Origin: Ferruginibacter sp.
GTDB lineage: Bacteria; Bacteroidota; Bacteroidia; Chitinophagales; Chitinophagaceae
DNA length: 64,000 bases
Direction: 5' to 3'
Assembly: GCA_031373525.1 (NCBI GenBank)
Contig: JANMMS010000092.1
Coordinates: forward strand, 4,542 to 68,541
Shown here one piece after another: positions 15,551 to 50,167 of the stretch. Position 1 is the stretch's first letter; every line of letters starts with the position of its first letter. The notes beneath the pieces are model-generated. The model was not told the origin of the DNA. It was given only the letters and a program-made list of their open reading frames with translations, and ran no database searches. The position numbers and the translations under genes are program-made.

Positions 15551-15558
15551 TATTTGCA
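15551..15558 (+). promoter_or_regulatory. Bacteroidota -7 promoter box TAnnTTTG for the SRP RNA
   Basis: TATATTTG lies 3 nt upstream of the predicted ffs 5' end. Confidence 0.5.
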
Positions 15559-15560
15559 CC

Positions 15561-15654
15561 GGCAAGTCTTATACGGCCAGCTCCTGTTGAACTCCCCCAG
15601 GACCGGAAGGTAGCAAGGGTAGATGGTTGAGCGGTGCGATATAAGTAACTTGCC
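15561..15654 (+). ncRNA. ffs: Signal recognition particle RNA (small bacterial 4.5S type)
   Basis: Contains the conserved domain IV core CCCAGGACCGGAAGGTAGCAAGGGTAG (GGAA tetraloop, AGCA). The terminal helix pairs ggcaagt with acttgcc, a T-run follows, and there is no ORF. Confidence 0.85.
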
Positions 15655-15769
15655 ATTTTTTATTTCCCCTGTTAAGAAGTTTTTCATAAATATCCACGGT
15701 TTATTTGATTGGCTTGTATCTTTGCGCCGTAAAAATCATACATCATAAACCATATATCATAGATAAATT

Positions 15770-34491: not shown

Positions 34492-34551
34492 GATATAACT
34501 CCTGCAAATTTATGAAACTTTGTTATTATTATTAAAACAAAATTCTGATTT

Positions 34552-34586
34552 AAAAAAGAGAAACCCCACAATTACTTGTGAGGTTT
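34552..34586 (-). terminator. Rho-independent terminator of the ancestral tRNA-Val locus
   Basis: Minus strand reads aaacctcacaa-gtaa-ttgtggggttt (11-bp stem) followed by ctcTTTTTT. It lies directly 3' of the tRNA fragment. Confidence 0.75.
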
Positions 34587-34587
34587 T

Positions 34588-34630
34588 GTGGGAGTTGACG
34601 GGGTCGAACCGCCGACCCTCTGCTTGTAAG
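34588..34630 (-). repeat. attL: 43-bp direct repeat equal to the 3' part of tRNA-Val (fragment only)
   Basis: gtgggagttgacggggtcgaaccgccgaccctctgcttgtaag is identical to 50092-50134. It lacks the tRNA 5' half. Confidence 0.9.
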
Positions 34631-34781
34631 TTAGAAAACAAATGATAACACATAATTTTTGATAATTGACCGTAATAGTAAGATTCAATGTAGTAAAGGG
34701 TTAATGATAAACAATGATAAACGATGATAGACAATAATATATATATTTGTGATGGAATGGTGACGGAATCATTATAACAGC

Positions 34782-36005
34782 ATGAATATAAATAAAGCCA
34801 AAGCAGCCATATACCTGGACAAAACACATCCTAAGCAAAATAAGGAGTGTGCAATCTATATTCGTGTCACATATAACCGGGTAAGAAAATATTACCCTAC
34901 TTCTAAAAGCCTTACTGAAATTGATTTTGAAAAGGCAGTTAGTGAAAAGCCTGGCAAAAGATTAGAAGATACTGCCCATGATATCCAACAAAAAAAAGTA
35001 GAAGCCCAATTAATCATTAATAACCTGCCTTACTTCACTTTTGAATTATTTGAAAAAAAGTTTATTAGTAATAGATCCATAAATGACACAATTGCAGATA
35101 TGTTTGATTTTGTAATTAAGAAATTAAAGGATAACGATCAAATTGGAACTGCAGTTTCTTATGGATGTGCGAAAAAAAGCATTGAAACTTTTCGGCCAGG
35201 ATTAAAATTTACTGATATCAATGTTTTTGTTCTCCAATCGTATGAGAAATGGATGCTGGGGGAAAAAAAGAGCACTACTACAATTAGCATTTATTTAAGA
35301 CACCTCCGGACGCTTTTTAATAATGCAATAGAAGACGGCTTTATTACAAAGGATATTTACCCATTTGGGAAAAGGAAATATGAAATACCGCAAAGTAATA
35401 ACGTTAAGAAGGCACTTACTTTAAAAGAAGTTGGTTTGATTTTTAATTATCGTTCTAAGCCTGGCACTACTACCGATAGGGCTAAAAACTATTGGCTTTT
35501 TATGTATTTATGCAATGGTATGAACATGAAGGATATGGCAATGCTGAAATATGAAAACATTAAAGGTAAATTCATTGAATTTCAGCGGGCCAAGACAGCC
35601 AGGACAAAGAGAAATGTTGTGCAGATTAGAGTTGTACTGACACCTGAAATTGAAGCTATAATAAAAAAATGGGGCAACCACAACAAACAACCAGGTAATT
35701 ATATTTTCCCCATACTCACCAAAGGTATTACAGCTGTCCGGGAAAGGCAATTGATTCAACAAATTATTTCTGTTGTAAATGATCACATGAAAATAATAGG
35801 AACTGATTTAAAAATAGAACAAGAGGTAACAACTTATACCTGTAGGCATTCATTTGCTACTATCCTTCAAAGAAGTGGTATTTCTACTGAGTTTATAAGC
35901 GAAGCTTTGGGGCATTCTAATTTAAGAACAACACAAAACTATCTTGCAGGTTTTGAAGATGAAAAGAAGAATGAAGTTGCAAAAATACTAACATCATTTA
36001 AATGA
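34782..36005 (+). CDS. Tyrosine recombinase / site-specific integrase (Bacteroidota type with N-terminal arm-binding domain)
   Basis: The C-terminal catalytic region TYTCRHSFATILQRSGISTEFISEALGHSNLRTTQNYL supplies the HxxR, H and Y residues. 407 aa. Confidence 0.9.
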   Translation: MNINKAKAAIYLDKTHPKQNKECAIYIRVTYNRVRKYYPTSKSLTEIDFEKAVSEKPGKRLEDTAHDIQQKKVEAQLIINNLPYFTFELFEKKFISNRSINDTIADMFDFVIKKLKDNDQIGTAVSYGCAKKSIETFRPGLKFTDINVFVLQSYEKWMLGEKKSTTTISIYLRHLRTLFNNAIEDGFITKDIYPFGKRKYEIPQSNNVKKALTLKEVGLIFNYRSKPGTTTDRAKNYWLFMYLCNGMNMKDMAMLKYENIKGKFIEFQRAKTARTKRNVVQIRVVLTPEIEAIIKKWGNHNKQPGNYIFPILTKGITAVRERQLIQQIISVVNDHMKIIGTDLKIEQEVTTYTCRHSFATILQRSGISTEFISEALGHSNLRTTQNYLAGFEDEKKNEVAKILTSFK

Positions 36006-36008
36006 TTT

Positions 36009-36167
36009 ATGGATAAGCAAAATAAAAATAAGCAGGAAAGCAAAGTAAAAAGATTACTTACACCTGCAGAAAAAGAATTGGTAAATCTTATATCAAAAAT
36101 TATCGTTGCAAATACAATAAGTAAGGCCAGTACAGAAATAAAGTTGAAATACAAAAATGACCAGTGA
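36009..36167 (+). CDS. Possible 52-aa ORF (MDKQNKNKQESKVKRLLTPAEKELVNLISKIIVANTISKASTEIKLKYKNDQ)
   Basis: Hand-translated; below the ORF-track cutoff. It starts 4 nt after the integrase stop and overlaps the next ORF by 11 nt. Confidence 0.25.
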   Translation: MDKQNKNKQESKVKRLLTPAEKELVNLISKIIVANTISKASTEIKLKYKNDQ

Positions 36168-37104
36168 ACAAATAAATATATTAATTAAACACGGTGATAT
36201 TTGCCCGGTATCGTCTTCCCATTCTGATATGAGTGAATGTACTTTCACTGATACAGATCAAAATATTGAATACTGTATAAGTATTAAAATGTATGAGATT
36301 TTTGAAAGATTATTCAGCGAATATTTAGAATTTGAAGTTGATTTTGATCATAAAGTATTTATAGATGCAATCAATAATAAATCTGAATTTATTTCCCCGT
36401 TAAAAGAGGATAGAATTACATTTTACAAAGATTATTTAAAGGAGCAAAATGATGAACTTACTTCTTTACTGGATGAAATTTATACTGTTAGTATAGACAC
36501 TATAGATTTAGCAAAATCCTTATGGCCAATATTTTTATTGAAAAACGGTATGTACCTAATAGAATGTTTAAAATTTACAGTTTTAAAAGGTAAAAAGTTA
36601 GAAGCGTTTTCATGGGGCTATTCAGGCACCCCACGATCAAAAAATCATACTTACATAAAAGAATTTTTTTATGCTAGCTCAATAAAAAATCTTTATACAA
36701 TTGTAACAATCGGCGAAAATATTAGATTTCTTAAAAGCTGCATTCTTGAAATAGACGAATCGAAAAATGAAACTACTAATAACCAAAAAAGTAAAAAAGT
36801 TACCCATAGGGATAATGCAATAGCCTATATTTTTAAACAAAATATGCCGAATAGTCACTTTGCCGTATTGACCCGGATAGATTCGAGAAATTTACTGAAC
36901 GAAGAAGGTAAGCCATTCGGTAAGAATTTTGAAATAGCTCTGGGCAATCTTACATACTTTGGAAAAAATAAAAAAACTAAATACAAGCCTTATAATTCAA
37001 AAGACTTACAACGAGTAATTGATTTAAAATTACTAGATAATTACCCAGAAGCTTTAAAGGCCCTTAAAGAAGAATTAATTAAACTAATTGCCAAAAGTAG
37101 CTAA
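36157..37104 (+). CDS. Hypothetical protein (element cargo between integrase and Xis-like gene)
   Basis: 315-aa intact ORF with no recognisable motifs. Confidence 0.5.
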   Translation: MTSEQINILIKHGDICPVSSSHSDMSECTFTDTDQNIEYCISIKMYEIFERLFSEYLEFEVDFDHKVFIDAINNKSEFISPLKEDRITFYKDYLKEQNDELTSLLDEIYTVSIDTIDLAKSLWPIFLLKNGMYLIECLKFTVLKGKKLEAFSWGYSGTPRSKNHTYIKEFFYASSIKNLYTIVTIGENIRFLKSCILEIDESKNETTNNQKSKKVTHRDNAIAYIFKQNMPNSHFAVLTRIDSRNLLNEEGKPFGKNFEIALGNLTYFGKNKKTKYKPYNSKDLQRVIDLKLLDNYPEALKALKEELIKLIAKSS

Positions 37105-37193
37105 TGATAGGAACTGTAGCGTATAACGTAGCCACTACAATGTAAATCCCTTCCACTTTTATTTAACATTTGCGCTTATATAAAACAGCACAA

Positions 37194-37544
37194 ATGGAAC
37201 AAATTACCCAGCCTTTATTTTTAACGACATTAACAGCACCTGAATTAAAAAGCTTATTCAGAAGTGAAATTGAAAATTATTTCAGTGAAAATAATAGTAT
37301 AAAATCACAGCAAAGTATTAATGAAGATGTTATTCTAAACATTCACCAGGCAGCAAAGTATATTAATCTTTCAATTCCTTCAATTTATCGTTTGCACGGC
37401 GCCAAAGCAATACCTGTATCTAAAAAGGGTAATAAGTTGAGATTTAGCAAACAAGCATTAACTAAATGGATGATGGGGGGCCGGGAAAAAACTCTAAAAA
37501 AAATTGAAAAGGATGCTGAAAATACGAACTCAATAAGTCAATAA
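37194..37544 (+). CDS. Excisionase / AlpA-like helix-turn-helix DNA-binding protein
   Basis: ILNIHQAAKYINLSIPSIYRLHGAKAIPVSKKGNKLRFSKQALTKWM matches the HTH_17/excisionase pattern. A hairpin (atgcaac...gttgcat) plus T-run follows. Confidence 0.7.
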   Translation: MEQITQPLFLTTLTAPELKSLFRSEIENYFSENNSIKSQQSINEDVILNIHQAAKYINLSIPSIYRLHGAKAIPVSKKGNKLRFSKQALTKWMMGGREKTLKKIEKDAENTNSISQ

Positions 37545-37715
37545 AAAAATGCAACCTTTTAGAGCTTAAAAAAAGTTGCATTTTTTATCAACAATAAAAA
37601 AACTGAACCCCGTAGAAAAACAAATATACTTCTTTTTTGCATTTTTCATATCACTTTACATAGAAGCTAGATTTTGTTATCCATTCGGGGTTTTAAAAAC
37701 CCAATCCTAAATAAA

Positions 37716-37946
37716 ATGAGTGGAAAACATTTACCCAAAGCAAAAGCCTCACCTAATTTCAAGCACCGCAAATTTATTATTAAGAATAATAAGAAAGAGC
37801 ATTTTAAACGGCATAGAGAAGCTGTAATTATTTTATCAGGCAATTCAGCATTTAAGTGCTATCAATACCGGTTTGGGTATTTTACATATAAAGGGAAAAG
37901 GCGAAGGTTTTCAATTCTATTACTTAACTCTAAAAAATTTAAGTAA
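37716..37946 (+). CDS. Possible small, very basic protein upstream of the primase-helicase
   Basis: 76 aa from the ATG, Lys/Arg-rich. Its stop is 1 nt before the primase ATG (taaaATG). It could equally be a non-coding leader. Confidence 0.2.
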   Translation: MSGKHLPKAKASPNFKHRKFIIKNNKKEHFKRHREAVIILSGNSAFKCYQYRFGYFTYKGKRRRFSILLLNSKKFK

Positions 37947-37947
37947 A

Positions 37948-40482
37948 ATGATTGAAACATTAAAAAACACTCGTAAGGGGAAATCTACTTCCAGGCAGGT
38001 ACAGAATGAAAATAATATTACTGCTAGCAATAAGTCCTACTTCCAGCAACGTATGGAGCTGCTGGGGATCACTGATGATATCAATAAGATTGCACTGCAT
38101 AAAACGGAGCTGCAGACTGGAAATGATATCATGGAAGATGTGCAGATCTTCCGGGAGGTTGACCAGGGAATTGAAATACTTGTATATACACTCGACCGGC
38201 TAACAATAAGAATTGAAAAGAGCGGGGGCAAACAGAAGAAAGATTTTTCAATGACCAGGTTAAAGGATCCTATCATTAAAGACAATGATATAATAAAATA
38301 TCTAATACCAAAAGGCGCTGGTACACATCCATTCTTTCCCCCCGGCGTGGTTGATAAATATGAGATGGGTGAGCAGATCCACACACTCTTCCTGGTAGAA
38401 GGATATTTTAAAGCTTTCAAAGCGGCCATGCATGGGGCCGATATCATCGGGCTGAGCAGCATTACCCACATGAAAGAAACCGGTAAGAATAACCTGCACA
38501 CGGAGATCCTTAAATTAATGACCACGTGCAACGTGCAGCGCATGGTTTGGCTTACCGATGGCGATGCCTTAGATATCAGCCAGAAGGAATTAACTGACGG
38601 CCTTGACCTTTACAAACGGCCTAATGGCTTTTTTCAATCGGTAAATACATTCAAAACATTATTATCTGACTATGATAATATTGAAAAATGGTTTTTCCAT
38701 ATTGATACAGACAGACTTTTTAACGACAATAATAAATTAGACCGGGCAAATCTTAAAGGTATTGATGATCTGCTGATCAGCTTCCAGGATAAAACTGCAG
38801 ATATCATCCAGGATCTGCAATCCGTAGGTAATAATAGTTACTATTTTCAAAAATTCAATGTAAGCTATGGCCTGGGTAAAGTTCATTCACATTTTCACCT
38901 GGCAGATGTAAAAGAATTTTATTTATACCATGTAGAGCGCCGTCCGGAACTGAAAAACAAAGAATTCATTTTTAATGGTACCAGGTATATATACAATGAA
39001 GAAACGGGCAATTGTGATATCAAAATGCCAAAAGATGCAGCTTCATATTTTAGAAGTGGAGATCTTTATTTTGAATTTATCCATAAACCAAATCAGCACC
39101 ACGAAATTGAAACTATCATTGAACAAAGGCAAAAATCCACCATTGTTGATGATCATGGAAAAACTTTCTTAAAATACATTAAAAAGTACAAAAGCTTTTG
39201 TAATGTACCGGATCATGTTTCTTATCAGCAGGTAATTAATAATTGTTTCAATCTCTATAGCCCCTTAGAAATTGGGCCACTTGATGAACCATGTGGCCCG
39301 GAGGATTGCCCTACAATCATTTCATTTCTTACCCATTTATTTGGAGAAAACAAAATAGGGTATGAAGACACGGAAACAAATCAAACGAAGGAGTATATCA
39401 CAATTGATTTAGCCCTAGATTATTTACAGCTGCTATATCAAAAACCTCAACAAAAACTACCTATACTTTGCCTGGTAAGTAAAGAAAATAATACGGGTAA
39501 AAGCACCTTCGCTGATTTTTTAAGAAACTTTTTAGGAGCAAATGTTGCCATTGTTGGAAACAGCGACTTGGCAGGTGATTTTAATGCTCACTGGGCCAGC
39601 AAAAATGTGGTGATATGTGATGAAACAAAAATAGATAAGCAGCATGTGGTAGAAAAGATAAAAAGCCTTAGCACTTCAAAAAAAATATTTATGAACGCTA
39701 AGGGCCGGGGCCAAGTAGAATTAGATTGCTTTATAAAGTTTGTACTCATAACAAATAATGAAGAAACTTTTATTTATGCAAGTGAAGAAGATATCAGGTA
39801 TTGGGTAATAAAAGTGCCTGTATTGAAAAAAGAAAACCCATTGATCATTGATCAACTAAAACAGGAAATCCCAATGTTTTTAAGTATGCTAAATAAAAGG
39901 AAGTTAGCTACAGAACATAAAAATCGGATGTGGTTTCATCCGCAATTATTGAAAACCGATGCCCTGGTAAAACTTGTAGAAAAAACAAAGCCTTCTGCAG
40001 AAAAACAGATCCGGCATTATATAAGGGAAATGTTTTTTAATACTGAGTATGATGAAATTTTAATGAGCACCACCGATATCATAAAAGAGGTTTTTAATGG
40101 CAGTTCAAAATATGATGCCGATTATATAAACGGCATTTTAAAATCAAACATGAAAATTGATAAATATCATGTTTGGAAAGTTGAGGGGTGCAAAGATAAT
40201 TATGATAAACAAAGCGAAGCTATTTTATATGCAGAATCAAAGGGTTTAAATGCTACCAGTGCAGTCGTTAAAAATTATATTTCTAAACGCTATACTTATC
40301 CAAAAAATGAAGAAGTTTTTGAAGAAAAAAAGGGAAAGGTTTTGAAAATAGTAAGTATTACTGTTGACAAGCCTGGGAGGCCATTTTTGTTTAAACAGAA
40401 TATGTTTTTAAGCCCGGAAGAAATTCAGGAAATTAAATCGACACTTAATGATTATGAGGATCCGGAATTACCGTTTCATTAA
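37948..40482 (+). CDS. Primase-helicase (Toprim-like N-terminal domain plus P4/D5-type SF3 helicase)
   Basis: Toprim-like LFLVEGYFKAF...WLTDGDALD. Walker A KENNTGKSTF, Walker B VVICDET, then FVLITNNEE. The start is taken at MIETLKNTRKG. Confidence 0.75.
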   Translation: MIETLKNTRKGKSTSRQVQNENNITASNKSYFQQRMELLGITDDINKIALHKTELQTGNDIMEDVQIFREVDQGIEILVYTLDRLTIRIEKSGGKQKKDFSMTRLKDPIIKDNDIIKYLIPKGAGTHPFFPPGVVDKYEMGEQIHTLFLVEGYFKAFKAAMHGADIIGLSSITHMKETGKNNLHTEILKLMTTCNVQRMVWLTDGDALDISQKELTDGLDLYKRPNGFFQSVNTFKTLLSDYDNIEKWFFHIDTDRLFNDNNKLDRANLKGIDDLLISFQDKTADIIQDLQSVGNNSYYFQKFNVSYGLGKVHSHFHLADVKEFYLYHVERRPELKNKEFIFNGTRYIYNEETGNCDIKMPKDAASYFRSGDLYFEFIHKPNQHHEIETIIEQRQKSTIVDDHGKTFLKYIKKYKSFCNVPDHVSYQQVINNCFNLYSPLEIGPLDEPCGPEDCPTIISFLTHLFGENKIGYEDTETNQTKEYITIDLALDYLQLLYQKPQQKLPILCLVSKENNTGKSTFADFLRNFLGANVAIVGNSDLAGDFNAHWASKNVVICDETKIDKQHVVEKIKSLSTSKKIFMNAKGRGQVELDCFIKFVLITNNEETFIYASEEDIRYWVIKVPVLKKENPLIIDQLKQEIPMFLSMLNKRKLATEHKNRMWFHPQLLKTDALVKLVEKTKPSAEKQIRHYIREMFFNTEYDEILMSTTDIIKEVFNGSSKYDADYINGILKSNMKIDKYHVWKVEGCKDNYDKQSEAILYAESKGLNATSAVVKNYISKRYTYPKNEEVFEEKKGKVLKIVSITVDKPGRPFLFKQNMFLSPEEIQEIKSTLNDYEDPELPFH

Positions 40483-40504
40483 AAATTTAATTGATCTATA
40501 AATG

Positions 40505-40690
40505 TTGTTACAATTGTTACAAAGCATTCAAAAAATGAGAAAAAGCAATATAGATAAAGGTTTTACGCTGTAACAGTATTTTTTATGGCTGTTACATTCT
40601 GTTACATTCTGTTACATTTATCTGTTACATATTTTACTATGTTAAAGTAAAGAATATCAAATAGTTAGTAAAATGTAACAATTGTAACAA
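40505..40690. repeat. Iteron block (putative replication origin)
   Basis: ttgttacaattgttaca (40505-40521) is the exact reverse complement of tgtaacaattgtaacaa (40674-40690). Between them lie ctgtaacag (40568) and four direct ctgttacat copies at 40589, 40599, 40609 and 40622. Confidence 0.7.
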
Positions 40691-40741
40691 AAAAATAGAG
40701 GGTTTGGGAGATACCTTTTTTTAAAAAGTAAAAGCAAAAAA

Positions 40742-41140
40742 ATGAATAAAAAGAAAATAGAAACATTACTCCCTTTTACAATTATTCAGGGCTTGGAATA
40801 TGAGGGCACTGTAAGCAATGCAATTCATATTACCAGGATGTACCCACATCAGACTTCATTTGTAAGCATGTATGAGCCAGGTATGTTAGAGGCTAGAATT
40901 CCAAACATTCATTTATCTAAGGAATTGAAAGCTTTAGTAATTAGGAACTGCTATTTTCCTAAGCATACAGAAGCTATTAAAAAATTAATTGCCCAGGATG
41001 AAATTTCATTTTTAGAACCGGGCAATAAAGAGAAACAAAAAATTAAACGGCCAGCAATAGTTATCTGTACTTCTACTGACCTGGAAGAAATACCGATGGA
41101 TATTTTTCCAGACAAAGTGGGTTTATTAAAATGCGGTTGA
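40742..41140 (+). CDS. Hypothetical protein
   Basis: 132-aa ORF, first gene after the iteron block. No motif recognised. Confidence 0.45.
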   Translation: MNKKKIETLLPFTIIQGLEYEGTVSNAIHITRMYPHQTSFVSMYEPGMLEARIPNIHLSKELKALVIRNCYFPKHTEAIKKLIAQDEISFLEPGNKEKQKIKRPAIVICTSTDLEEIPMDIFPDKVGLLKCG

Positions 41141-41592
41141 TTGAAAGTAAAAATTTAAAATATTATTTTATGGATAGCAAGTGGTTAAAATCAATTATTG
41201 TGCAGAATCAATTGTCAAAAAGAGATTCATGTAAAATATTAAATATGACAGAAGAAGAATTTAATGCAATCGATTTATTGGATGAATTGCCGGAAAAAAT
41301 ATCTCTCCAAATTTTTGAAACCCTTGATTTACATTATATAGTTCCTTCTGGTTTAAGTATTGAATATTATAATTATTTAAAGTTTTTAAATAAAAAAACT
41401 ATTGAAAATGAAAGGCTTCTTGAGCAAATAAAAAATTTAATTAAGGTGCTGGAAGTTGATAAAAACAGGCTAAAAGAACAAATTGAAAAGAAAGATCAAA
41501 TAATAAAAAAACTAGAAGAAAAAATTGAGTTTGATCAGGCCGAAAACATTGAACTGGAAAATTTAGTGAAAAAACTAAGGCGCTTAAAATGA
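41131..41592 (+). CDS. Hypothetical protein with a C-terminal coiled coil
   Basis: 153-aa ORF overlapping the previous ORF by 10 nt, with heptad-like LLEQIKNLIKVLEVDKNRLKEQIEKKDQIIKKLEEKIE. The start could be the Met at 41170. Confidence 0.45.
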   Translation: MRLIESKNLKYYFMDSKWLKSIIVQNQLSKRDSCKILNMTEEEFNAIDLLDELPEKISLQIFETLDLHYIVPSGLSIEYYNYLKFLNKKTIENERLLEQIKNLIKVLEVDKNRLKEQIEKKDQIIKKLEEKIEFDQAENIELENLVKKLRRLK

Positions 41593-41620
41593 GTATTAAA
41601 TTATAAAAAAAATCCTTTTT

Positions 41621-41869
41621 ATGAAACCGGAAACAGCTATTAAAAATGATATTCCTATAGTGATTAGCACTAAAGCTTTGGCGCAAAGAAAAGAATTTGA
41701 AAAAATTATAGATCAATTAAAGAAACAAAATGATACTATTTCAAAAATGAATAAAAAAAACATCTTGTTAATTTCTCAGCAAAATGAGCGAATTGCCTTT
41801 ATTAATAAAAAAATTGAGATGTTTAGAAAAAGCTTAATAATTGCTTGGGGTAAATCACTAAAAGTTTAA
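41621..41869 (+). CDS. Hypothetical small protein
   Basis: 82-aa ORF, same strand and tightly packed. Confidence 0.4.
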   Translation: MKPETAIKNDIPIVISTKALAQRKEFEKIIDQLKKQNDTISKMNKKNILLISQQNERIAFINKKIEMFRKSLIIAWGKSLKV

Positions 41870-42015
41870 AATTAAAAAAAGTGGTAAAAACTAATTGTAA
41901 TAACCGGCATGAAGTGGATACATACATTCATTTTCCAGCAAACAGAGTGTCCTTTTCAATCGTATTTTATGAATTTAATTTTGAAAGGATTAAGATATAA
42001 AACTTAAGTAAAGTT

Positions 42016-45000
42016 ATGAGCGTACGTACAGATGTTATAAACCTCAATGTTAATGTAAATGGCAATAAGGCCCAGAATGACCTAAATAACTTGCGTAAAC
42101 GAGCTGCAGATGTGAAATTTGAAATGGAAGGTCTTAAAAAGGGTACAGCTGAATACATTGCCAAAAGCAAAGAACTGGCCCAGGTAAATACACAAATGGT
42201 TGCATTAAAAAAAGAGATTGGCCTTGCTTCCCTTACTCAAAAAGAACTTACTGCAGAACTTAATAAATTAAAGGCACTACGTGGCTCAGTGATCCCGTTT
42301 TCAAATGAATACAAAGAATTAAGCAAATCTATTGACCAGGTGGGGAAAAGGCTTAATGACGTTAAAAATGGCGTACAAGGTTTTTCTTCTTTCTTCTCAA
42401 AAATAAAAGATGAAGTAAAACAATTTGGAGTAGTGGCCGCCGGATACCTGGGCTTCCAGTTTCTCACATCCCAGTTTCAAAATATTATCCGTGGTGCAGG
42501 CAAAATGAGCGATCAGCTTGCAGATCTTCGCCGGGTGGCCGGATTAACTGGTGATGAAGCTGTAAATCTCAACAACCGGTTTAAAGAACTGAATACACGT
42601 ACAAGTACCGAAGGCCTCCGGGAGATTGCCATCATTGCCGGTAAGCTTGGCGTGGCAAAGGATGACATCTTTGATTTTACTGCAGCAGTAGATAAGCTCG
42701 TTGTTTCCTTGGGCGATGAATTAGGTAATGCAGAGCAGATCACCAGCCAGCTGGGAAAAATATTGAATGTTTTCAATGGAGAAATATCTGCCGATGGAAT
42801 TACAAAACTCGGTAATGCATTTGTAGAATTAGCCAATACAGGAAGCGCTACCGGTGGTTTTATTGCCGACTTTGATCAGCGCCTCAGTGGTATTGCAAAA
42901 AGTGCCGGTATTAGCCTGGGCGCATTAAGTGGGCTCGGTGCCGGGCTGGAAGAAATGGGTGGCAGGGTAGAAAGCAGCGCCACATCTATACAAAAATTAG
43001 TAGTCAACATTGCTTCTGATATTCCTGCAGCTGCAAAAATTGCCGGCCAGTCAACACAGGAATTTGATAAACTTTTCAAACTGGATCCCACCGAAGCCAT
43101 TTTAAAATATAGCGAAGGGCTTGTAAAAAACAAGCAATCATTTTCAGAGGTTACAGCTTCTTTAAAAGATGCCGGCGAAGAAGGTGCCCGTTACATTGAA
43201 ACCATTTCAAAACTTGGTACCGGTGCCGATCAGCTTCGTAAACGTATTGACCTGGGAAAACAATCCATACAGGAAAGTTCTGCTATTACAGAAGCATTTA
43301 CCTTAAAAAATGAAACCTTTGGAGCTTCCCTTGATAAGTTGGGAAAAGAATTTAATAAACTTACTACTTCGCCCGGTGTAACTGGATTTTTAAAAGTTGC
43401 GGTAGAAGGTGCACTTGCATTTATAAGAGCAATTAAAGCAATACCATTTCCAATTACAATAGGAGCTTTTACAACATTGACAGGAATAATTTTATTATAT
43501 GCAGCTGCGAAAGTAAAAGCATTCGTAGCTACAGCAAGGCACACAGCAGCAGAATTAATTAGCAGTGCTGTACTTAAAGCAAAAGCGATTGCGACTGAAA
43601 TTGCTACAAGGGCTCAATTAGCTGCAATTATTGCAACAGATCTTTTTACTGGAAAAATAAAATTGGCTGCAGCTGCACAACAATTTTATTCCTATGTCCT
43701 CGCTGGTAGTTTAGGCCCTATTGGAATTTTAATAAGTCTTGTAGGAGGATTAGCAGCAGGATATCTTTTGATGTCTAATAGCCAAAGAAAACTTACTTCT
43801 GAACAACGTGCAGCGAATGATCTCTCTAAAGAAGCTGCTTCTATTTACTCAGACCAGGTTAATACAGTTGAGCGACTTAAAAAAATTCTGGAAGATGAAA
43901 ATGCAAGCCTTAATTTAAAAAAAGAAGCATATAAACAACTCATAGCTATTCATCCTGAATTTGCAAAAACACTCAGCTTGGATGAAACCGGGCACTTAAA
44001 AGGAGCAGAAGCTATTAACGTTTATATAAAATCTCTAAAAGATAAAGCTGAAGTACAAGCTGCAGAAACACTATCTAATAAAGCATACCAGGAGATTCTT
44101 GAAAAACAGCAGGAATTAACTGAAGTAAATAATAAGTTTTTCATCCAGGGCAGAAAGCATGAGCGCCTGAATTTGTTGGAAGAAATTGCCGACCTGCAGA
44201 AAAAGAAAGATTATTACGATAACATCATTGCTCAAAAAATATCTGCTAATTCAAGTACTGCAATTGGTACAAATACTGGCAGCAATAGTGGAAATGCTGC
44301 AGCCATTGCAGTAAAAACTATTGCTGTTATAAAAGCTAGGTTGAAAGAACTCGATGATGCCTATGAGAACATTGATATCAGCAATAAAAAAGCCCTGGCA
44401 TCAAACCGGGCAGCTCGAAAATCCCTCCAGGATGAACTGGATGCATTGGAAGGTAAAAAATCACCCGGACAAAAATCGGATGACAGTGAATACAAACGCC
44501 TGAAAGCCGAAGCTGAAAAATTTTATAAGGACATAAAGGCTTTGAAAAATCGGGTTGATGCAGGTGATAACCCAGAAGAGCAGGAAATACAAAGAGCCAC
44601 TGCCAAATATGAAGAGTTGCTGCTGAAGGCGAAGAATTATTTTATTAAATCGGCCAGCAGTAAAAAGACTTTCAATGAGGAAGAAAAAATAATTGAAGAA
44701 GCACAGCAGAAAGAACTGAATGCCATATTTCAAAAATATTTTAAAAAGCGTTTTGAAGAAAGCAGTGCAAAAGAATATGAGGACAGCCTTACTGCCAGGC
44801 ATGAATTTTCTGATCAGTTAAAAGTTGCTGCAGCTAAAGATTATGCCGATGGTAAAATCTCTAAAATACAGTATGCTGCAGAAATTAAGCAGATAGATAA
44901 AAATGAAACAGCCGATCGTATCATTATTGCCGAAGACTATAGCGGCACCGTAAAAAAAGCTGCCAGCGATGTAAGGCAATTCCGTAAAAAAGAAGAAGAG

Positions 45001-46209
45001 CAAACCACCGCAGATCTCATAACAGAATCAGAAGCCAGGGTACAGGTAGCTGCTGATGAAGAAGCTGCAAAACTCCGCCGGGCGGTACTAACAACCAAGC
45101 CGGGATCTACAGCAAATTTAAATGCCCGAAAAGCTGAATTAAAATATGAAGAGGAACTGGAAGTGCAGGCTGCCAAAGATAAGTATGCAGCACTTGGGAC
45201 GGTTATTGGCGAAGAAAGTGAAATCATTATGGAGATCCGGGCTGATTTTGCTCAAAGGCAAGAAGAGGCTGAAGGTAATCATTGGCAAAATTTGATAGAT
45301 AAGATAATGCAATATGTGGCGTATTTCCAACGTGCAATTAATAGCCTTAACCAATATATAACTAATCGTGAAACTGCCCAGTTTGCAAAAGAAAAAAAAC
45401 TGAATGATTTAAAAAGAAAAGAATTAAAAAAGCAATTTGATAATAAACTACTCAGTCAGGCTCAGTATGATAAAAAACTGAATGAACTGAATGAAGAGCA
45501 GGATAAAAGAGAACGTGAATTTGCAAGAAAAAGAGCAAAGCGAGAAAAGGCAATTGCTCTTTTTGGGGCCATTGTGAATACCGCTGCAGCTGTAGCAAAA
45601 GCATTAGCGGGAAATTTCCCTGTGCCTGTAAATATAGCTTTTGCTGCTCTGGCCGCTGTTTTAGGTGCATTGGAAATAGCAGCCATTGCCAGCCAACCCT
45701 TGCCCGAAGCAGGCCGTGGTAAATGGTTTACTGAAGGAGATAAGCATAGCGATGCTTCAGGGGGTATTCCTATAAAAATTGAAAGAGATGAAGCAGTAGT
45801 TACGGCTGCTGCTATGACAGATAATAAAGAATACATGGTACGGGGTACACCTGCCCAGATTACCAGCGCCCTTAACAGCCAGGCAGGTGGGGTAAACTGG
45901 GCAGGTGGCGCCATCATTAAAAAGATGAGCCATATAACAGATCGGCCAGCAATTATTAACCCTGGGCTTCCCGTACAGCTTAAACAATTTGGGTATGGTA
46001 ATAGTGAAAATGGTAATCAAAATCAAAATATCGAAGGTGAATTAAATTCAATGCGCTCTGATTTTGTAAACGAAATAAAAGGCTTACGAGCAGATATGAA
46101 CACCTGGCAAATAAATCTTAAAGCACACGTTGTTTTACGAGATCTTAAAGACAAAGAAAAACTTTATGAGTCTTCTAAAAATTTAAGTGGTTTATCGAAA
46201 GCTAGTTAA
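42016..46209 (+). CDS. Phage tail tape-measure-like protein
   Basis: 1397 aa. The core GKMSDQLADLRRVAGLTGDEAVNLNNRFKELNTRTSTEGLREIAIIAGKLGVAKDDIFDFTAAVDKLVVSLGDELGNAEQITSQLGKILNVF resembles the TP901-type TMP core region. It also has hydrophobic Ala/Gly-rich helices and a very long Lys/Glu coiled coil. Confidence 0.65.
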   Translation: MSVRTDVINLNVNVNGNKAQNDLNNLRKRAADVKFEMEGLKKGTAEYIAKSKELAQVNTQMVALKKEIGLASLTQKELTAELNKLKALRGSVIPFSNEYKELSKSIDQVGKRLNDVKNGVQGFSSFFSKIKDEVKQFGVVAAGYLGFQFLTSQFQNIIRGAGKMSDQLADLRRVAGLTGDEAVNLNNRFKELNTRTSTEGLREIAIIAGKLGVAKDDIFDFTAAVDKLVVSLGDELGNAEQITSQLGKILNVFNGEISADGITKLGNAFVELANTGSATGGFIADFDQRLSGIAKSAGISLGALSGLGAGLEEMGGRVESSATSIQKLVVNIASDIPAAAKIAGQSTQEFDKLFKLDPTEAILKYSEGLVKNKQSFSEVTASLKDAGEEGARYIETISKLGTGADQLRKRIDLGKQSIQESSAITEAFTLKNETFGASLDKLGKEFNKLTTSPGVTGFLKVAVEGALAFIRAIKAIPFPITIGAFTTLTGIILLYAAAKVKAFVATARHTAAELISSAVLKAKAIATEIATRAQLAAIIATDLFTGKIKLAAAAQQFYSYVLAGSLGPIGILISLVGGLAAGYLLMSNSQRKLTSEQRAANDLSKEAASIYSDQVNTVERLKKILEDENASLNLKKEAYKQLIAIHPEFAKTLSLDETGHLKGAEAINVYIKSLKDKAEVQAAETLSNKAYQEILEKQQELTEVNNKFFIQGRKHERLNLLEEIADLQKKKDYYDNIIAQKISANSSTAIGTNTGSNSGNAAAIAVKTIAVIKARLKELDDAYENIDISNKKALASNRAARKSLQDELDALEGKKSPGQKSDDSEYKRLKAEAEKFYKDIKALKNRVDAGDNPEEQEIQRATAKYEELLLKAKNYFIKSASSKKTFNEEEKIIEEAQQKELNAIFQKYFKKRFEESSAKEYEDSLTARHEFSDQLKVAAAKDYADGKISKIQYAAEIKQIDKNETADRIIIAEDYSGTVKKAASDVRQFRKKEEEQTTADLITESEARVQVAADEEAAKLRRAVLTTKPGSTANLNARKAELKYEEELEVQAAKDKYAALGTVIGEESEIIMEIRADFAQRQEEAEGNHWQNLIDKIMQYVAYFQRAINSLNQYITNRETAQFAKEKKLNDLKRKELKKQFDNKLLSQAQYDKKLNELNEEQDKREREFARKRAKREKAIALFGAIVNTAAAVAKALAGNFPVPVNIAFAALAAVLGALEIAAIASQPLPEAGRGKWFTEGDKHSDASGGIPIKIERDEAVVTAAAMTDNKEYMVRGTPAQITSALNSQAGGVNWAGGAIIKKMSHITDRPAIINPGLPVQLKQFGYGNSENGNQNQNIEGELNSMRSDFVNEIKGLRADMNTWQINLKAHVVLRDLKDKEKLYESSKNLSGLSKAS

Positions 46210-46222
46210 TAAAGGCTGAAAT

Positions 46223-46480
46223 ATGAATTCAAAAACAGAAAATAGCAATGAAAGGATTGAATTTCTAGAAAAATACTTTCTTGAAAATTTTATTCCTGTA
46301 GAAGCAAGTGAAAAGGATATCATTTTCATGTCAACGAATGAAATTTATAATTCGTTTTATTCTTTATTTCCTTCTGATGAATTAAATAAAGAGATGCTTT
46401 TCTCCTGGTTAATGAAAGGTGGGTTTAAATTTATTGACATGGGTAAAATGCAGTTTGAGTGGATGCTACATACTAAGTAA
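46223..46480 (+). CDS. Hypothetical small protein
   Basis: 85-aa ORF, 14 nt after the TMP-like stop. Confidence 0.4.
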   Translation: MNSKTENSNERIEFLEKYFLENFIPVEASEKDIIFMSTNEIYNSFYSLFPSDELNKEMLFSWLMKGGFKFIDMGKMQFEWMLHTK

Positions 46481-46522
46481 ACAATTTTTATAACATAATA
46501 ATTAACAAAATAAAAAAACAAC

Positions 46523-47182
46523 ATGGAAAATCTATTAATTGATTTCAATAAATCTGGTTATGAATCAGAAATATTATCATTGGAAACTTTGAAAATTTGC
46601 TTTGAAAAGGTAATTGAACATTACAATTTACTTGGACTTGGACACTTTGAAACAAAGGATTTCCATAATTTATTATTAAATACAGAAAAATTCTTGTTTG
46701 ATAATTTAATGAAAGACAAACAGGATAATATTTCAGGTTTGCCAGTTTCAAAAGAAAAAATGTTTGAAATAATGGAAAAACCTACGGGTTATTATTCTTT
46801 AATATCCGAAATTAAAGATATTAACGAAAAAATTTCATCAAAAATAAAATCTCAATACCTGAAATTATATACAGGTTGTTCACAAAAAAAGGTTATAGAT
46901 TTTTTTGATTTCGATGCTAAAGGGGCAATTATCATAAAACAGAAAAAGATTGACCAGGCTAAAAAGCTTTATGAATTGTATGCAACAACAGAGCAATCAA
47001 AAACAGCCTTTTTGCTTGCTACAAAAGTTTGTGAACTTTTAAATAAAAGTGGGTTATTTCAAAGCCATAATGATTATTATACAAATAACAGACAGGTTGA
47101 AAAAATAATGGAATGCATTAAAATTGAAGGCAAATGTGAAAATGCCGCAAAAATTAATATTAATAAAATAAAGTATTTTTAA
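46523..47182 (+). CDS. Hypothetical protein
   Basis: 219-aa ORF with no motif recognised. Confidence 0.45.
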   Translation: MENLLIDFNKSGYESEILSLETLKICFEKVIEHYNLLGLGHFETKDFHNLLLNTEKFLFDNLMKDKQDNISGLPVSKEKMFEIMEKPTGYYSLISEIKDINEKISSKIKSQYLKLYTGCSQKKVIDFFDFDAKGAIIIKQKKIDQAKKLYELYATTEQSKTAFLLATKVCELLNKSGLFQSHNDYYTNNRQVEKIMECIKIEGKCENAAKININKIKYF

Positions 47183-47258
47183 TTAATAAATTCAAAAGCA
47201 AATCCTGATATTACTAATCAACTATCGTCTGAACAGACGATAGTTATAAAAATTTTAT

Positions 47259-47474
47259 ATGAATCCTAATACAGCTATTAAAAATGAAAATTCTAAAAAG
47301 ACACCTACAGATACAATTGAGTTTGAAGGAAAAGAATATAAGTGGCAACGTGGAAGTTTCCAGCTGCCCGGTGATACCACAGTTTACATTTCCAAAGATG
47401 TTTGTAATGATTTTACTATTATTAAGCGCCTTATAGACATTGATGGACAATCTATTTTAAGAGAATTATATTAA
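47259..47474 (+). CDS. Hypothetical small protein
   Basis: 71-aa ORF. Confidence 0.35.
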   Translation: MNPNTAIKNENSKKTPTDTIEFEGKEYKWQRGSFQLPGDTTVYISKDVCNDFTIIKRLIDIDGQSILRELY

Positions 47475-47533
47475 AAGTTTGTAAAATCAAATATTATTTA
47501 TAATCAGGTGACTGGTATCCTGCAGGTGCCTGA

Positions 47534-48031
47534 TTATAAATAAGTAAATGTTTTCTTAAAATACTTTGTGTACAATAAACTTTTTCCTGTAGCAATACGA
47601 TACCGGTAATAACATTTCCTCATACTGTCATCACTCCAGGCTTCTTTATCAATGCCTATTCTCTTTCTTACTTCAGGTAAATTACTTTGAAAGTTTGGAA
47701 GTGTCGAAATCATATCATCCATTAAAGTATGAAAGCGGCCTTTTATTATAGTTTCTATAAAAATGTTGAAGTTTTTTATATTGCTCTCATTCAGGTTTGC
47801 ACCAAATCGGCGAAATTCTTTCACAGGAATGTATATACGTAACATTTCAGTGTAGTACTTGCATCTAAAAGATGTTCTACGTTGGTTAGTTGAATGTTGT
47901 AACAAATCATGCATCTTTTGCCCGATTTCCATACCACGAGTTTTCATAATAGGCTTTGATCCAAATTTTGTAAATATATAAGCTCTTATATATTTCTTTG
48001 TGGGAATATCGACTGGAACAAATCCTTTCAT
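47534..48031 (-). CDS. Hypothetical protein
   Basis: 165-aa ORF downstream of, and co-oriented with, the S49 peptidase gene. Confidence 0.45.
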   Translation of the reverse strand: MKGFVPVDIPTKKYIRAYIFTKFGSKPIMKTRGMEIGQKMHDLLQHSTNQRRTSFRCKYYTEMLRIYIPVKEFRRFGANLNESNIKNFNIFIETIIKGRFHTLMDDMISTLPNFQSNLPEVRKRIGIDKEAWSDDSMRKCYYRYRIATGKSLLYTKYFKKTFTYL

Positions 48032-48085
48032 TGCAGTTTAATAGTTTTCTGTAAAATAAAGAATTATATAAAAGAATCAATTATT

Positions 48086-48997
48086 TTAAGTTCTTAATTT
48101 AATTAAGTTTTCCATCCTTTTTATTACTTCGCTAATTGGTTTTATTCCATCAATCAAACCAATTTTTAATGCATCTTTTGCATAGTACATTTTTCCGGTG
48201 AATGGTTCATTACCATTTACTTTAAGACGCTGACCACGAAAGAAAGACACCTGATCAATAAAATCTTTTACTAAAAATTTGAGGTCAGCTTGCATCAAAG
48301 TATAATTTCCTTTCACGGCCTCTTTATAATCTTTGTTCTTATCAATACTTTGTGGAGCATAGATATTATGGACCTTAATTCCATTTTGTTCAAAGAAACC
48401 GGCAAAGTCATAAATAGTACAGTATGCTCCTATACTTCCCACCTGATCAGTTACCCGAGTACAATATATTTCCTGGGCAGCACAACCGATCCACATCGCT
48501 CCACTTGCTGCAATTCCATCCTGTATTACTGTAATTACAGGTTTGATTTTACTCACCTGGCGAATTGTTTCAGCGAGCATACCAGTACCATCAGACTGGC
48601 TGCCCGGAGAATCAATATTTAATAAAATACCTTTTACCTGGTCACTGTTTGAAAGTCGAATGATTAAATCATTAAATTCAACACTACCGTAGCTGCAGAA
48701 ATCACCATATTTTAAAATTGGGCCCAGAAGATCAATCACTGCAATACTGTTATTTGGAACCCTTTCTATAGCAGTAGTTGGATTTACACTGTAGATATTA
48801 TTTTTCGATCCATTAATGTATTTTTTGGAAGGTGATAGAATTTGATCTGTTCGTAATTCCTTTTCTTTAATGGATGTTTGATCCGCTGTTGATGTTCCTT
48901 TGATCATTCCTTTCAAAAGAGGTAATAAATTCCGGGCATAACTAGGCTCTATTAACCAATCCCCTCTAAGTATTGCAGATGCAGTTTTAAAGCTCAT
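48086..48997 (-). CDS. S49-family serine peptidase (SppA / phage prohead-protease-like, ClpP fold)
   Basis: GILLNIDSPGSQSDGTGMLAETIRQVSKIKPVITVIQDGIAASGAMWIGCAAQEIY...VGSIGAY is the typical S49 core. Confidence 0.75.
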   Translation of the reverse strand: MSFKTASAILRGDWLIEPSYARNLLPLLKGMIKGTSTADQTSIKEKELRTDQILSPSKKYINGSKNNIYSVNPTTAIERVPNNSIAVIDLLGPILKYGDFCSYGSVEFNDLIIRLSNSDQVKGILLNIDSPGSQSDGTGMLAETIRQVSKIKPVITVIQDGIAASGAMWIGCAAQEIYCTRVTDQVGSIGAYCTIYDFAGFFEQNGIKVHNIYAPQSIDKNKDYKEAVKGNYTLMQADLKFLVKDFIDQVSFFRGQRLKVNGNEPFTGKMYYAKDALKIGLIDGIKPISEVIKRMENLIKLRT

Positions 48998-49623
48998 AAT
49001 TTTTTTTTTAGTTATGCGAAGTTTAAAGCTTTTAATCAGTAAGAAAAGGACAGCATATCTGTAATTCTATTATTCAGAGCTGCAGTGTTGCCCTGATCAC
49101 CGGCTATTGCCCTGATCAGTGTGATATCTGCATCAGTTGTGTAGGCAGATCCATCCATGCCAGGCACGGGAGCAATGGGGTATGTGGTAGGCTACCGGCA
49201 TAGAGGCGCTCAGCTGCCATAGTGAGCTATGCCTAGCAAACCCTTACTAGTAGTGAAGTGTATCGAATGTGTGATTACATATACCCCCAAAAAACACCTT
49301 TGGCGTGCGCTCTCAGCCGATAGTGTGGGCGGCAGTTTTTGTGTGTATTTTTACGATTTTTAAAAAATTGAAAAAATAAAGTGTTGATTATCAAAGGAAA
49401 TTCACAAAACAGGTTTAAAACGCCAAATTATAGCCAGTTCTGTATTAAACTTTAATTGAAATTAGTAGTACCTTGCCAGTGCGACACACAAATAAAGTTT
49501 CTTATTAATTCATTATTTATCATATCATTCCCGGCGAAAGATTGAAAGTATCTTCCTTCATTTGCTTTATAGCGGTGTGTGTCGCAGCGACCGGGGATTT
49601 ATTTAATTAATAAAAAAACAAAC

Positions 49624-49977
49624 ATGCGACACACACACAAACCAATTCTAAGCAGTGTAATTAATTCAAAAAACATACAACCACCTGCAATTCTATTTCC
49701 TGAAAATGATGAAAAAAAAGAGGCTTTATTATGGAAAATTATTCATGATAAAGATGAAGAAATAAAAGCCTGGATAGAGTTAGTGAATTATCATAAATAC
49801 AGAATTAAAAATTGTTTATTAAAACAATCAAAAGAAGAAAAGAAAAAGGAATGCGATCTTTTAAGAAGCATTATGGATATCAATCTACAAATAAGCAAGT
49901 CTAATGAAGATCTTATTGACTATCTCCAATCAAAAGTTAGATTTCGGGAAGGTAAATTTTTAACAGTCGTTAAATAA
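49624..49977 (+). CDS. Hypothetical protein (last gene before attR)
   Basis: ORF from the ATG at 49624 (the track GTG is at 49579). The start codon is embedded in a TGCGACACACA repeat. Lys/Glu-rich. Confidence 0.4.
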   Translation: MRHTHKPILSSVINSKNIQPPAILFPENDEKKEALLWKIIHDKDEEIKAWIELVNYHKYRIKNCLLKQSKEEKKKECDLLRSIMDINLQISKSNEDLIDYLQSKVRFREGKFLTVVK

Positions 49978-50053
49978 ATAGTATTCTAAAAAGCTTTTCC
50001 GGATTACCCAAATTATTTTGTGTTGAAATTGTGACGGAATTGATAAAAATAAA

Positions 50054-50082
50054 TAAGGGCTTCATTTAATGAAACCCTTATT
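50054..50082 (-). terminator. Element-borne hairpin next to the reconstituted tRNA-Val 3' end
   Basis: ataagggcttcat-tta-atgaaacccttat: a 13-position stem with one mismatch. A T-rich run follows on the minus strand. Confidence 0.5.
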
Positions 50083-50091
50083 ATCATTGAG

Positions 50092-50134
50092 TGGGAGTTG
50101 ACGGGGTCGAACCGCCGACCCTCTGCTTGTAAGG
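50092..50134 (-). repeat. attR: 43-bp direct repeat inside the intact tRNA-Val
   Basis: Identical to 34588-34630. Confidence 0.9.
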
Positions 50135-50167
50135 CAGATGCTCTAAACCAACTGAGCTAAACTCCCT
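50093..50167 (-). tRNA. tRNA-Val (anticodon TAC)
   Basis: The reverse complement GGGAGTTTAGCTCAGTTGGTTTAGAGCATCTGCCTTACAAGCAGAGGGTCGGCGGTTCGACCCCGTCAACTCCCA folds as a cloverleaf. Acceptor stem GGGAGTT/AACTCCC, anticodon loop CTTACAA, T-loop TTCGACC. Confidence 0.9.

Follow-up and report, generated by a model that had tools for sequence, protein, structure and literature searches.

A family of phage-derived integrative elements of about 15 kb with a tape-measure gene in Bacteroidota: candidate phage satellites

The 64,000-nt stretch of the Ferruginibacter sp. contig JANMMS010000092.1 analysed here (the window) contains a 15.5-kb element that entered the 3' half of a tRNA-Val gene via its own tyrosine integrase. 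The element belongs to a conserved family of phage-derived mobile elements of about 15 kb, found in Chitinophagales/Sphingobacteriales-type Bacteroidota, whose members carry an autonomous replication module and a full-length tail tape-measure protein (TMP) while most other virion genes are absent. We consider it moderately probable that the family represents helper-dependent phage satellites that supply their own tape measure. The family was previously undescribed.

The integration event can be read directly from the DNA. The only tRNA gene that ARAGORN and Rfam detect is that for tRNA-Val(TAC), at 50091/50092-50166 of the window's minus strand, and a repeat search combined with direct reading gave a 48-nt direct repeat with a spacing of 15,503 bp, the first 43 nt of which are exact (34588-34630 = 50091-50133). 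These 43 nt span the tRNA from the anticodon loop to the 3' end, and the whole tRNA is present at the right copy only. To the left of the partial copy lie a hairpin and a T-run, on the tRNA strand AAAACCTCACAAGTAATTGTGGGGTTTCTCTTTTTT, which fit the native terminator of the tRNA. Since the left copy is only a tRNA fragment with the original terminator, the DNA between the repeats is an insertion, and with its position in a 3' tRNA end, its tRNA-restoring repeat and an integrase gene inside one end it is a tRNA-targeting tyrosine-integrase island. The initial annotation of this DNA had already described the exact 43-bp repeat, the insertion in tRNA-Val(TAC) with the intact tRNA on the right and the ancestral hairpin and T-run terminator on the left, all of which hold, except that it placed the right copy one base too high, at 50092-50134. 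The decamer GTGAYGGAAT, present beside attL, is also found at 50031-50040 beside attR and thus lies just inside both element ends; this decamer and the AATGATAAAC repeats are candidate arm-type sites of the integrase. The insertion is flanked by ClpS and DoxX genes. The features of the element are collected in Table 1.

Table 1. Features of the element and its ends (window coordinates)
Feature	Position	Strand	Basis or remark
attL, partial tRNA-Val (3' 43 nt)	34588..34630	-	native hairpin/T-run terminator leftwards, about 34545-34587
Short repeats beside attL	34703..34769	+	AATGATAAAC x3.7, GTGAYGGAAT x2
Tyrosine integrase, 407 aa	34782..36005	+	Phage_integrase, Phage_int_SAM_5, Arm-DNA-bind_5 (Pfam); phrog_1
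orf52, small open reading frame (ORF)	36009..36167	+	conserved 3' of integrase in sibling L029-31
o315, 315-aa protein without assigned function	36157..37104	+	only in mini-elements among the loci compared
Helix-turn-helix (HTH) DNA-binding protein, HTH_17 (Xis/AlpA-type)	37170..37544	+	Pfam, PHROGs
Primase-helicase, 844 aa	37948..40482	+	DUF5906/superfamily 3 (SF3) helicase core; phrog_1156 'DNA primase'
Iteron block	40505..40690		TGTTACA, 6 forward + 3 reverse copies
o132a, o153, o82, three small ORFs	40742..41869	+	o153: HTH-like N-terminus and coiled coil
Tail tape-measure protein (TMP), 1397 aa	42016..46209	+	PhageMin_Tail; phrog_25337, E 5e-82
o85, o219, o71, three ORFs 3' of TMP	46223..47474	+	homology to phages/mini-elements
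o165	47534..48031	-	homologue of first head-block gene in Leef_1-like phages (Leef1_39)
S49 prohead-protease homologue, 303 aa	48086..48997	-	phrog_53 head maturation protease, E 3e-47
GC-rich non-coding island	49040..49365	-	48% GC vs 34% GC in element; upstream of S49
160-nt conserved region with TGCGACACACA inverted repeats, then o132b	49480..49977	+	sequence comparison
Intact tRNA-Val(TAC)	50091..50166	-	3' 43 nt (50091-50133) = attR

The gene calls of the element were searched against Pfam and PHROGs and, in addition, against NCBIfam and PADLOC. Pfam and PHROGs bear out the gene order given in the initial annotation, from the integrase to the S49 peptidase on the opposite strand. The left half contains the replication module. 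Its primase-helicase had been described as a Toprim plus SF3 protein; the SF3 part stands, with a clear DUF5906 match, and the N-terminal region has invariant E and DGD motifs that are Toprim-like, but no Toprim hidden Markov model (HMM) matches the protein. The match to TIGR01613, the P4-family primase, is weak (25.5 bits against a cut-off of 108.7). The iteron block noted earlier is real: nine TGTTACA copies lie in 40506-40689 (184 bp), against about 12.5 expected over the entire window. Similar iterons are found in the sibling loci L015, L037 and L045 described below, and the block is the presumed origin of replication.

The right half holds the virion-type genes (TMP, S49, o165, o71 and o85). 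The TMP is 64% identical to that of the small sibling element L032, 56% to that of the full-size phage L042 and 27-29% to Flavobacterium siphophage TMPs; TMP and S49 are 26-29% identical to the best-matching proteins of Flavobacterium, Polaribacter and Cellulophaga siphophages. The S49 protein keeps its catalytic motifs (DSPG, AASGAMW, GSIG and IYAPQS..KN) and is without the scaffold-like C-terminal extension of about 130 aa of its full-size relatives, in which this part is fused to the protease (L047 and the isolated phage Leef_1) or encoded by a separate ORF (L002 and L040). We conjecture that absence of the extension could bear on capsid assembly. In L015 and L037, a 24-aa repeat domain (DDGSxAL..TYKPV.H.TKPSW) stands in place of the extension, encoded by 72-nt tandem repeats in the 3' part of the gene (L015 16828-17108, L037 14257-14400). 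Homologues of o85 sit after TMP/F29 in full-size phages, and o71, possibly a connector-like protein, matches the C-terminal part of the gene directly after their putative capsid gene. An AlphaFold 2 (AF2) model of o165, built from a 63-sequence alignment (predicted local distance difference test, pLDDT, 83), has as its only match an uncharacterised protein of Polaribacter phage Leef_1 (template-modelling score, TM, 0.70; E 1e-6). This protein fits Leef1_39 (gp39), the sole 157-aa product there and the first gene before the protease and capsid genes.

No ORF of the element matched a capsid, portal, terminase, tail-tube, lysis or relaxase family in the four collections, in agreement with the initial annotation, which had recognised no capsid, portal, terminase, lysis or relaxase gene; coupling-protein and known defence families were likewise without a match there, and the small ORFs gave nothing usable. 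The window is also without homologues of F20, F3, F9, F12, F13 and F29, gene families of the full-size relatives, and no PDB sequence matched profiles built from the o165, o219 and o315 alignments. This bears on the idea of a very small virus that is self-sufficient, with its capsid and packaging proteins hidden among the unassigned ORFs of the element, of which there are about ten. We regard this as highly improbable. Only o315 is long enough for an HK97-type capsid, the others having 52-219 aa, and its AF2 model is of low confidence (pLDDT 65) and mostly helical, with no fold or capsid-like match in a search that is meaningless at that quality. Homologues of F20, the putative capsid gene of the relatives, and of any portal or terminase are absent. 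Finally, a 1397-aa tape measure implies a long tail, and tube, terminator and tip genes are absent.

The main new result is the existence of sibling elements, which the initial annotation had proposed to look for and which were found (L015, L037, L045, L032, L029 and L025). A scan with the primase-helicase, taking one genome per species, gave 27 loci. Among all the loci compared are at least five diverged siblings whose shared proteins are 35-65% identical, and three of these are also 15.1-15.5 kb long; their shared set consists of o315, o219, the HTH protein and a TMP of 1394-1493 aa. L015, from a Sphingobacteriales metagenome-assembled genome (MAG), is a 15,145-bp element between 47-bp repeats in tRNA-Val(TAC), with genes for an integrase, an o315-like protein, HTH protein, primase-helicase, an o219-like protein, S49 and a 1401-aa TMP. 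L037, on a metagenome contig and again in tRNA-Val, carries TMP, S49, o219-like, HTH, o315-like and integrase genes, and its replicase is a D5_N/DUF5906 helicase with a DUF6371 zinc-ribbon protein. L045 is a 15,129-bp contig consisting of the element alone, ending in a tRNA-Asn-like 3' half, with genes for an integrase, a 321-aa ORF, HTH protein, primase-helicase, o219-like protein, S49 and a 1493-aa TMP; the 321-aa ORF occupies the position of o315 and has no detectable match to it. In L032-35, an element of about 14 kb between host genes, TMP (64%), o85, o219, o71, an o315-like gene, two HTH genes and the primase-helicase (65-67%) are kept, the recombinase is a serine recombinase, and S49 and o165 are absent. 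L029-31 combine an integrase 80-90% identical to that of the window with orf52, o315, HTH, a DnaG-type primase, o85, o132a, o219 and o165. The TMP gene abuts the element end in L015, L032 and L037.

Two proteins mark the family. Among the loci compared, o315 occurs only in the mini-elements (L015, L029-31, L032 and L037), and o219 too is confined to mini-elements. Searching 50,697 phage records gave no match to either protein. In a library of 1.84 billion proteins, 171 cluster representatives belong to the o219 family. The o219 homologues of L015 (12577-13575), L037 (17834-18892) and L045 (6023-7021) are about 110 aa longer at the N-terminus, and this extension holds a Walker-A-like GPxGSGK(T/A)A motif that the o219 of the window lacks. 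S49 is inverted between the otherwise collinear L045 (8466-9549, where it is split into two ORFs) and L015 (16007-16624), and the region from TMP to S49 in the window is arranged differently from both; either an invertible segment or past rearrangements would account for these orientations. At L032 (positions 1-801) the insertion lies beside an ApeA-NTD/HEPN gene, which encodes a defence-type protein, suggesting that the element inserted in or beside a defence locus.

The larger relatives of these elements are phages. The primase-helicase family has 485 matches at E<1e-10, in Chitinophagaceae-type Bacteroidota; for 18 of the best 120 homologues the longest contigs are 40-49 kb, which suggests complete genomes of that size, and in most of the 27 loci the gene lies inside a large phage-like region. 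The phage block in these regions opens with F7, o165, F3, S49, a scaffold-like ORF, F20 (the putative capsid gene) and an o71-like gene, while TMP and o85 homologues lie elsewhere in the region. A 46,077-bp contig (L040/L042; ERZ23496267 scaffold_75) shares with the window the primase-helicase (66% identity), o165 (65%), TMP (56%), o71 (45%), o85 (35%) and S49 (33%). The order o165, F3, protease, capsid is common to the uncultivated viral genome L047 and Leef_1; related phages have 37-49 kb, and Leef_1, an isolated siphophage of 37.5 kb, also encodes portal, adaptor, neck, TMP and lysin. Given the homology of the primase-helicase, o165, S49 and TMP to full-size phages of 37-49 kb, the element is clearly phage-derived, and its virion-type genes stem from a definable, Leef_1-like phage lineage. 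Leef_1, Helgolandviridae and the Flavobacterium phages 6H, 2A and 1H represent the source lineage of its o165, S49 protease and TMP; Leef_1 and its relatives are complete viruses of 37-47 kb with portal, adaptor, neck, tail and lysin, whereas the element keeps a handful of genes. Beside the primase-helicase, many full-size relatives (L002 15462-17802; L005, L009, L012, L013, L016 and L026) carry a cassette resembling a diversity-generating retroelement, in which a reverse transcriptase (phrog_1423, E 2e-126) is accompanied by a small partner of 100 aa and by one or two proteins of 120-240 aa (F1, F5, F6). One further locus with a Bacteroidota-type primase-helicase and TGTTACA iterons, L014 (CALRIT020000001.1), bears a title that names a MAG of the cyanobacterium Vulcanococcus, probably because the contig was mis-binned.

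Such ancestry raises the question of whether the element is simply a defective Leef_1-like prophage that has kept its integrase, replication genes, TMP and protease and is now inert or slowly decaying. For each virion-type gene, full-size phages hold a homologue of similar identity, packaging genes are absent, one sibling is a decayed copy (L025, with a frameshifted primase-helicase and fragments of S49 and TMP) and S49 is split in L045. The initial annotation had reasoned that full-length prophage relatives would make this copy a deletion remnant; the closest relatives of the primase-helicase, o165, S49 and TMP do reside in phages of 37-49 kb, but the 15-kb architecture is conserved and o315 and o219 are absent from those phages, which argues against a recent deletion. 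At least five lineages show the same reduced architecture and size, with long ORFs, including the 4.2-kb TMP gene, intact at 35-65% identity, while replicases, recombinases and gene orientations are shuffled between members. Because the shared proteins are only 35-65% identical the reduced architecture is old, and because the long ORFs are all intact and the TMP stays at 1394-1493 aa it is under selection. A length held at about 15 kb while modules are shuffled is what satellite families typically show, unlike a one-off deletion. The integrase is intact, and the two att repeats still match each other exactly. We therefore judge a prophage remnant to be quite unlikely, and the earlier proposal of a satellite, now backed by a conserved family, to be credible.

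The family also shares a DNA motif with phages. Within the GC-rich island, on the window minus strand from about 49330 to 49265, lies a motif of about 65 nt, CGCCCnCnCTATC-N8-GnGnACGCC-N18/19-TATATG. It is found in the window, L015, L037, L045 and, weakly, L029, always 200-700 bp upstream of the o165/S49 block. An IMG/VR pattern scan located it in the 37-kb viral contig L047 as well, about 720 bp upstream of o165, F3, S49 and the capsid gene, and the 46-kb phage contig L040 ends inside it. A structured RNA in the island was considered and dropped in favour of a DNA site: the region 49040-49370 matches no Rfam family (gathering and E-value modes), its single-sequence fold is not significant (z about -1.4 on both strands), and RNAalifold applied to seven copies of the motif gave no conserved structure and no covarying helix. 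Since a covarying helix is missing, a DNA site bound by protein is the likelier reading. One possibility is a cos/pac site heading the morphogenesis operon, a physical DNA end being hinted at by the end of the L040 contig; the other is a late-promoter or activator site. Under either reading it would give the element a helper-linked function in cis.

An integrative element that moves without phage particles, by conjugation or another route, would also fit part of these data, its TMP and protease then serving as anti-phage decoys that poison tail or head assembly. The integrase, HTH protein, primase-helicase and origin form a backbone like that of NBUs and other integrative mobilizable elements (IMEs). 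This backbone is common in Bacteroidota. Circular Bacteroides/Phocaeicola records of 15-16 kb in PLSDB carry integrase, HTH and DUF5906 genes, and tail-assembly interference is a known defence on mobile elements, as in the Tai systems (PMC11364771) and with Rta of PLE11 (PMC12987554). The records in question, NZ_OY725957.1 (L048, 15,935 bp), OY726032.1 (14,960 bp) and OY726024.1 (29,827 bp), belong to Bacteroides/Phocaeicola. Those of about 15-16 kb hold a tyrosine integrase, DUF6043, ORF6N, HTH and DUF5906 helicase genes, with TMP and S49 absent; one Phocaeicola circle is almost exactly twice another, and the two could be a monomer/dimer pair. A relationship between o315 and the DUF6043 protein of the Bacteroides 15.9-kb circle was considered, and comparison showed none that was detectable. 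Against transfer without particles, the four collections returned no relaxase, which the initial annotation had named as the mark of an ordinary mobilizable element, and no coupling protein or known defence family. The TMP is of full length and strongly conserved throughout, as a functional structural protein should be, and both the sharing of the cis motif and the constancy of size are left without explanation. We find this possibility unlikely.

How might a helper-dependent satellite with its own tape measure operate? When a temperate siphophage of the Leef_1/Helgolandviridae type (37-49 kb) is induced or infects the cell, the element would excise and replicate from its iterons, and its DNA would be packaged into particles made by the helper. 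The element-encoded TMP would be built into helper tails, giving chimeric tails comparable to those of the Vibrio PLEs (elements that resemble phage-inducible chromosomal islands). Some members would add the scaffold-less prohead protease, o165 and a connector-like protein, and so change the assembly of helper heads or turn it to their own use. The motif lying upstream of the o165/S49 block could act in cis as a packaging (cos/pac) site of the helper or as a site at which a late promoter responds to the helper. The near-constant length of about 15 kb, one third to two fifths of the related phage genomes, would fit small capsids or multimers. A bolder version of this proposal, possible but on balance doubtful, is that of a new and widespread Bacteroidota satellite family whose hallmark is a full-length TMP, whose members parasitize Leef_1-like temperate siphophages, take capsid and tail parts from them and insert their own tape measure (for example to escape tape-measure-targeted exclusion or defence in helper lysogens), whose cis site was pirated from the helper head operon and whose size lies near one third of the helper's.

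Several observations weigh against a satellite life cycle. Excision, replication and encapsidation of the element are predictions from its sequence. The contig L045 was considered as a circular form and rejected, since it ends inside the att repeat and a break in de Bruijn-graph assembly explains this. Genes for a small terminase, capsid-size redirection or anti-helper functions were not recognised in the element, and o165 is not recognisable as a small terminase, its confident model (pLDDT 83) having no match to any PDB structure. No tail-assembly chaperone or hub gene was found beside the TMP gene, in contrast to PLEs. Neither a helper prophage nor a second phage-like region was found within the window. 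IMG/VR protein-pattern scans with TMP, o315 and o219, whose limited sensitivity allows only close pattern matches to be found, gave no siblings, and a scan with the primase-helicase, of the same limited sensitivity, gave only the unrelated locus L001. Finally, L032 has neither the cis motif nor o165 and S49; the motif thus travels with this block and may be a promoter and not a packaging site.

The remaining features lie at the margins of this argument. Of the small ORFs downstream of the iterons, o132a has a homologue at 48% identity in L029. A 42-nt direct repeat (81% identical; 41616-41657 and 47254-47295) covers the starts of o82 and o71, which consequently share the N-terminus MxPxTAIKN; it could be a recombination scar or a shared signal. 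Beyond the S49/o165 block lies a 1.1-kb, mostly non-coding stretch with o132b. Here the 160-nt TGCGACACACA region is 79% identical to DNA upstream of the early genes in L032, and in an excised circle it would be placed before o132b, the integrase, o315, HTH and primase-helicase genes. It is likely a control region. The host flanks in the window also encode valyl-tRNA synthetase, S-adenosylhomocysteine hydrolase and giant proteins with a type IX secretion system (T9SS) sorting domain. Two of the giant ORFs, 52620-57089 (1489 aa) and 57390-63398 (2002 aa), have fn3 or PKD-like domains and a C-terminal T9SS sorting domain; they are host surface proteins outside the element. A Bacteroidales-type small signal recognition particle RNA lies at 15553-15659 (RF04183, 91.7 bits). 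These flanking features identify the host DNA as a chromosome of Bacteroidota.

Bacteroidota dominate soils, freshwater, activated sludge and guts, and we know of no phage satellite of this phylum that has been characterised experimentally. The present analysis defines markers for such a family (o315, o219, a TMP of about 1400 aa, a length of about 15 kb, interchangeable replicases and recombinases, and tRNA-Val or tRNA-Asn targets), and by naming a candidate helper lineage and a candidate shared cis site it makes the satellite idea directly testable. If the idea is correct, the manipulation of tail assembly by a satellite TMP, reported in 2026 for the Vibrio PLEs, would also take place in an unrelated phylum and with siphophages as helpers, and satellite-finding tools would gain new marker genes.

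Comparison with known systems places the element between several of them. The initial annotation had called its layout PICI/P4-like, that is, like phage-inducible chromosomal islands (PICIs) and P4; this is apt for the left-hand layout, but P4 hallmarks and PICI packaging genes were not found and structural genes are present. As in PICIs and the related SaPIs, an integrase, an Xis/AlpA-like regulator, a primase-helicase and an adjacent origin lie within 10-18 kb; the length of about 15 kb is roughly one third of the related phage genome, and replicases are swapped between members. PICIs are by definition without phage structural genes. The element, in another host phylum, carries a TMP and a prohead protease and thus departs from that definition, which excludes structural and lysis genes, and the packaging-hijack genes terS, ppi, rppA/rpp and cpm have no HMM match in it. 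With P4 it shares an integrase, an AlpA-type HTH protein and a large primase-helicase with a TIGR01613 signal below the cut-off, and possibly the piracy of a helper cis site; it differs in phylum and in carrying TMP and protease, and no ORF matched Psu, Sid, Delta or Eps in Pfam, PHROGs or NCBIfam. Compared with capsid-forming PICIs (cfPICIs), whose capsid set (major capsid, portal, connectors and small terminase) was not found, it has only the protease and, possibly, a connector-like o71. No relaxase (Mob) family of the kind found in NBU-like IMEs turned up in any ORF with the same three collections.

Satellites with a tape measure now have precedents, in EPIPs (PMC12822802) and in PLEs (PMC12987554). 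The TMP, chaperone and hub that Vibrio PLEs encode go into chimeric tails in which their TMP replaces that of the helper; some cfPICIs and PLE-like elements are also predicted to carry tmp genes (PMC12987554). Like PLEs, the element is an integrated island of about 15-18 kb with its own replication module and its own TMP, but there is no sequence relationship: PLEs also have a tail-assembly chaperone and hub and use another recombinase and replication initiator, whereas in the element no PLE core homology and no chaperone or hub family was matched, the neighbours of the TMP gene being unassigned small ORFs. The PLE helper, in the Vibrio/ICP1 system, is a lytic myovirus, whereas the phages related to the element are siphophages, and since its TMP has 1397 aa against 1414 aa in related phages no change of tail length is predicted. 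The EPIPs of Mycolicibacterium (described in a preprint, PMC12822802) are satellites with a TMP, some head-related genes and an HTH protein, a combination that the element shares; they add a small terminase, head-to-tail adaptor, stopper, scaffold and capsid, none of which can be recognised in the element, with the possible exception of the connector-like o71. VEIMEs, small marine integrative elements found also in Flavobacteria, some with serine proteases and HNH, are inferred phage parasites (10.1101/2022.07.26.501625). EPIPs have been isolated as free particles, and VEIMEs are defined by concatemers in particles, with no reported tape measure. Our element is PICI-like on its left side and PLE/EPIP-like in carrying a TMP, without being a member of the PICIs, P4, cfPICIs or PLEs, and would best be classed with the phage satellites, as a new variant at family level.

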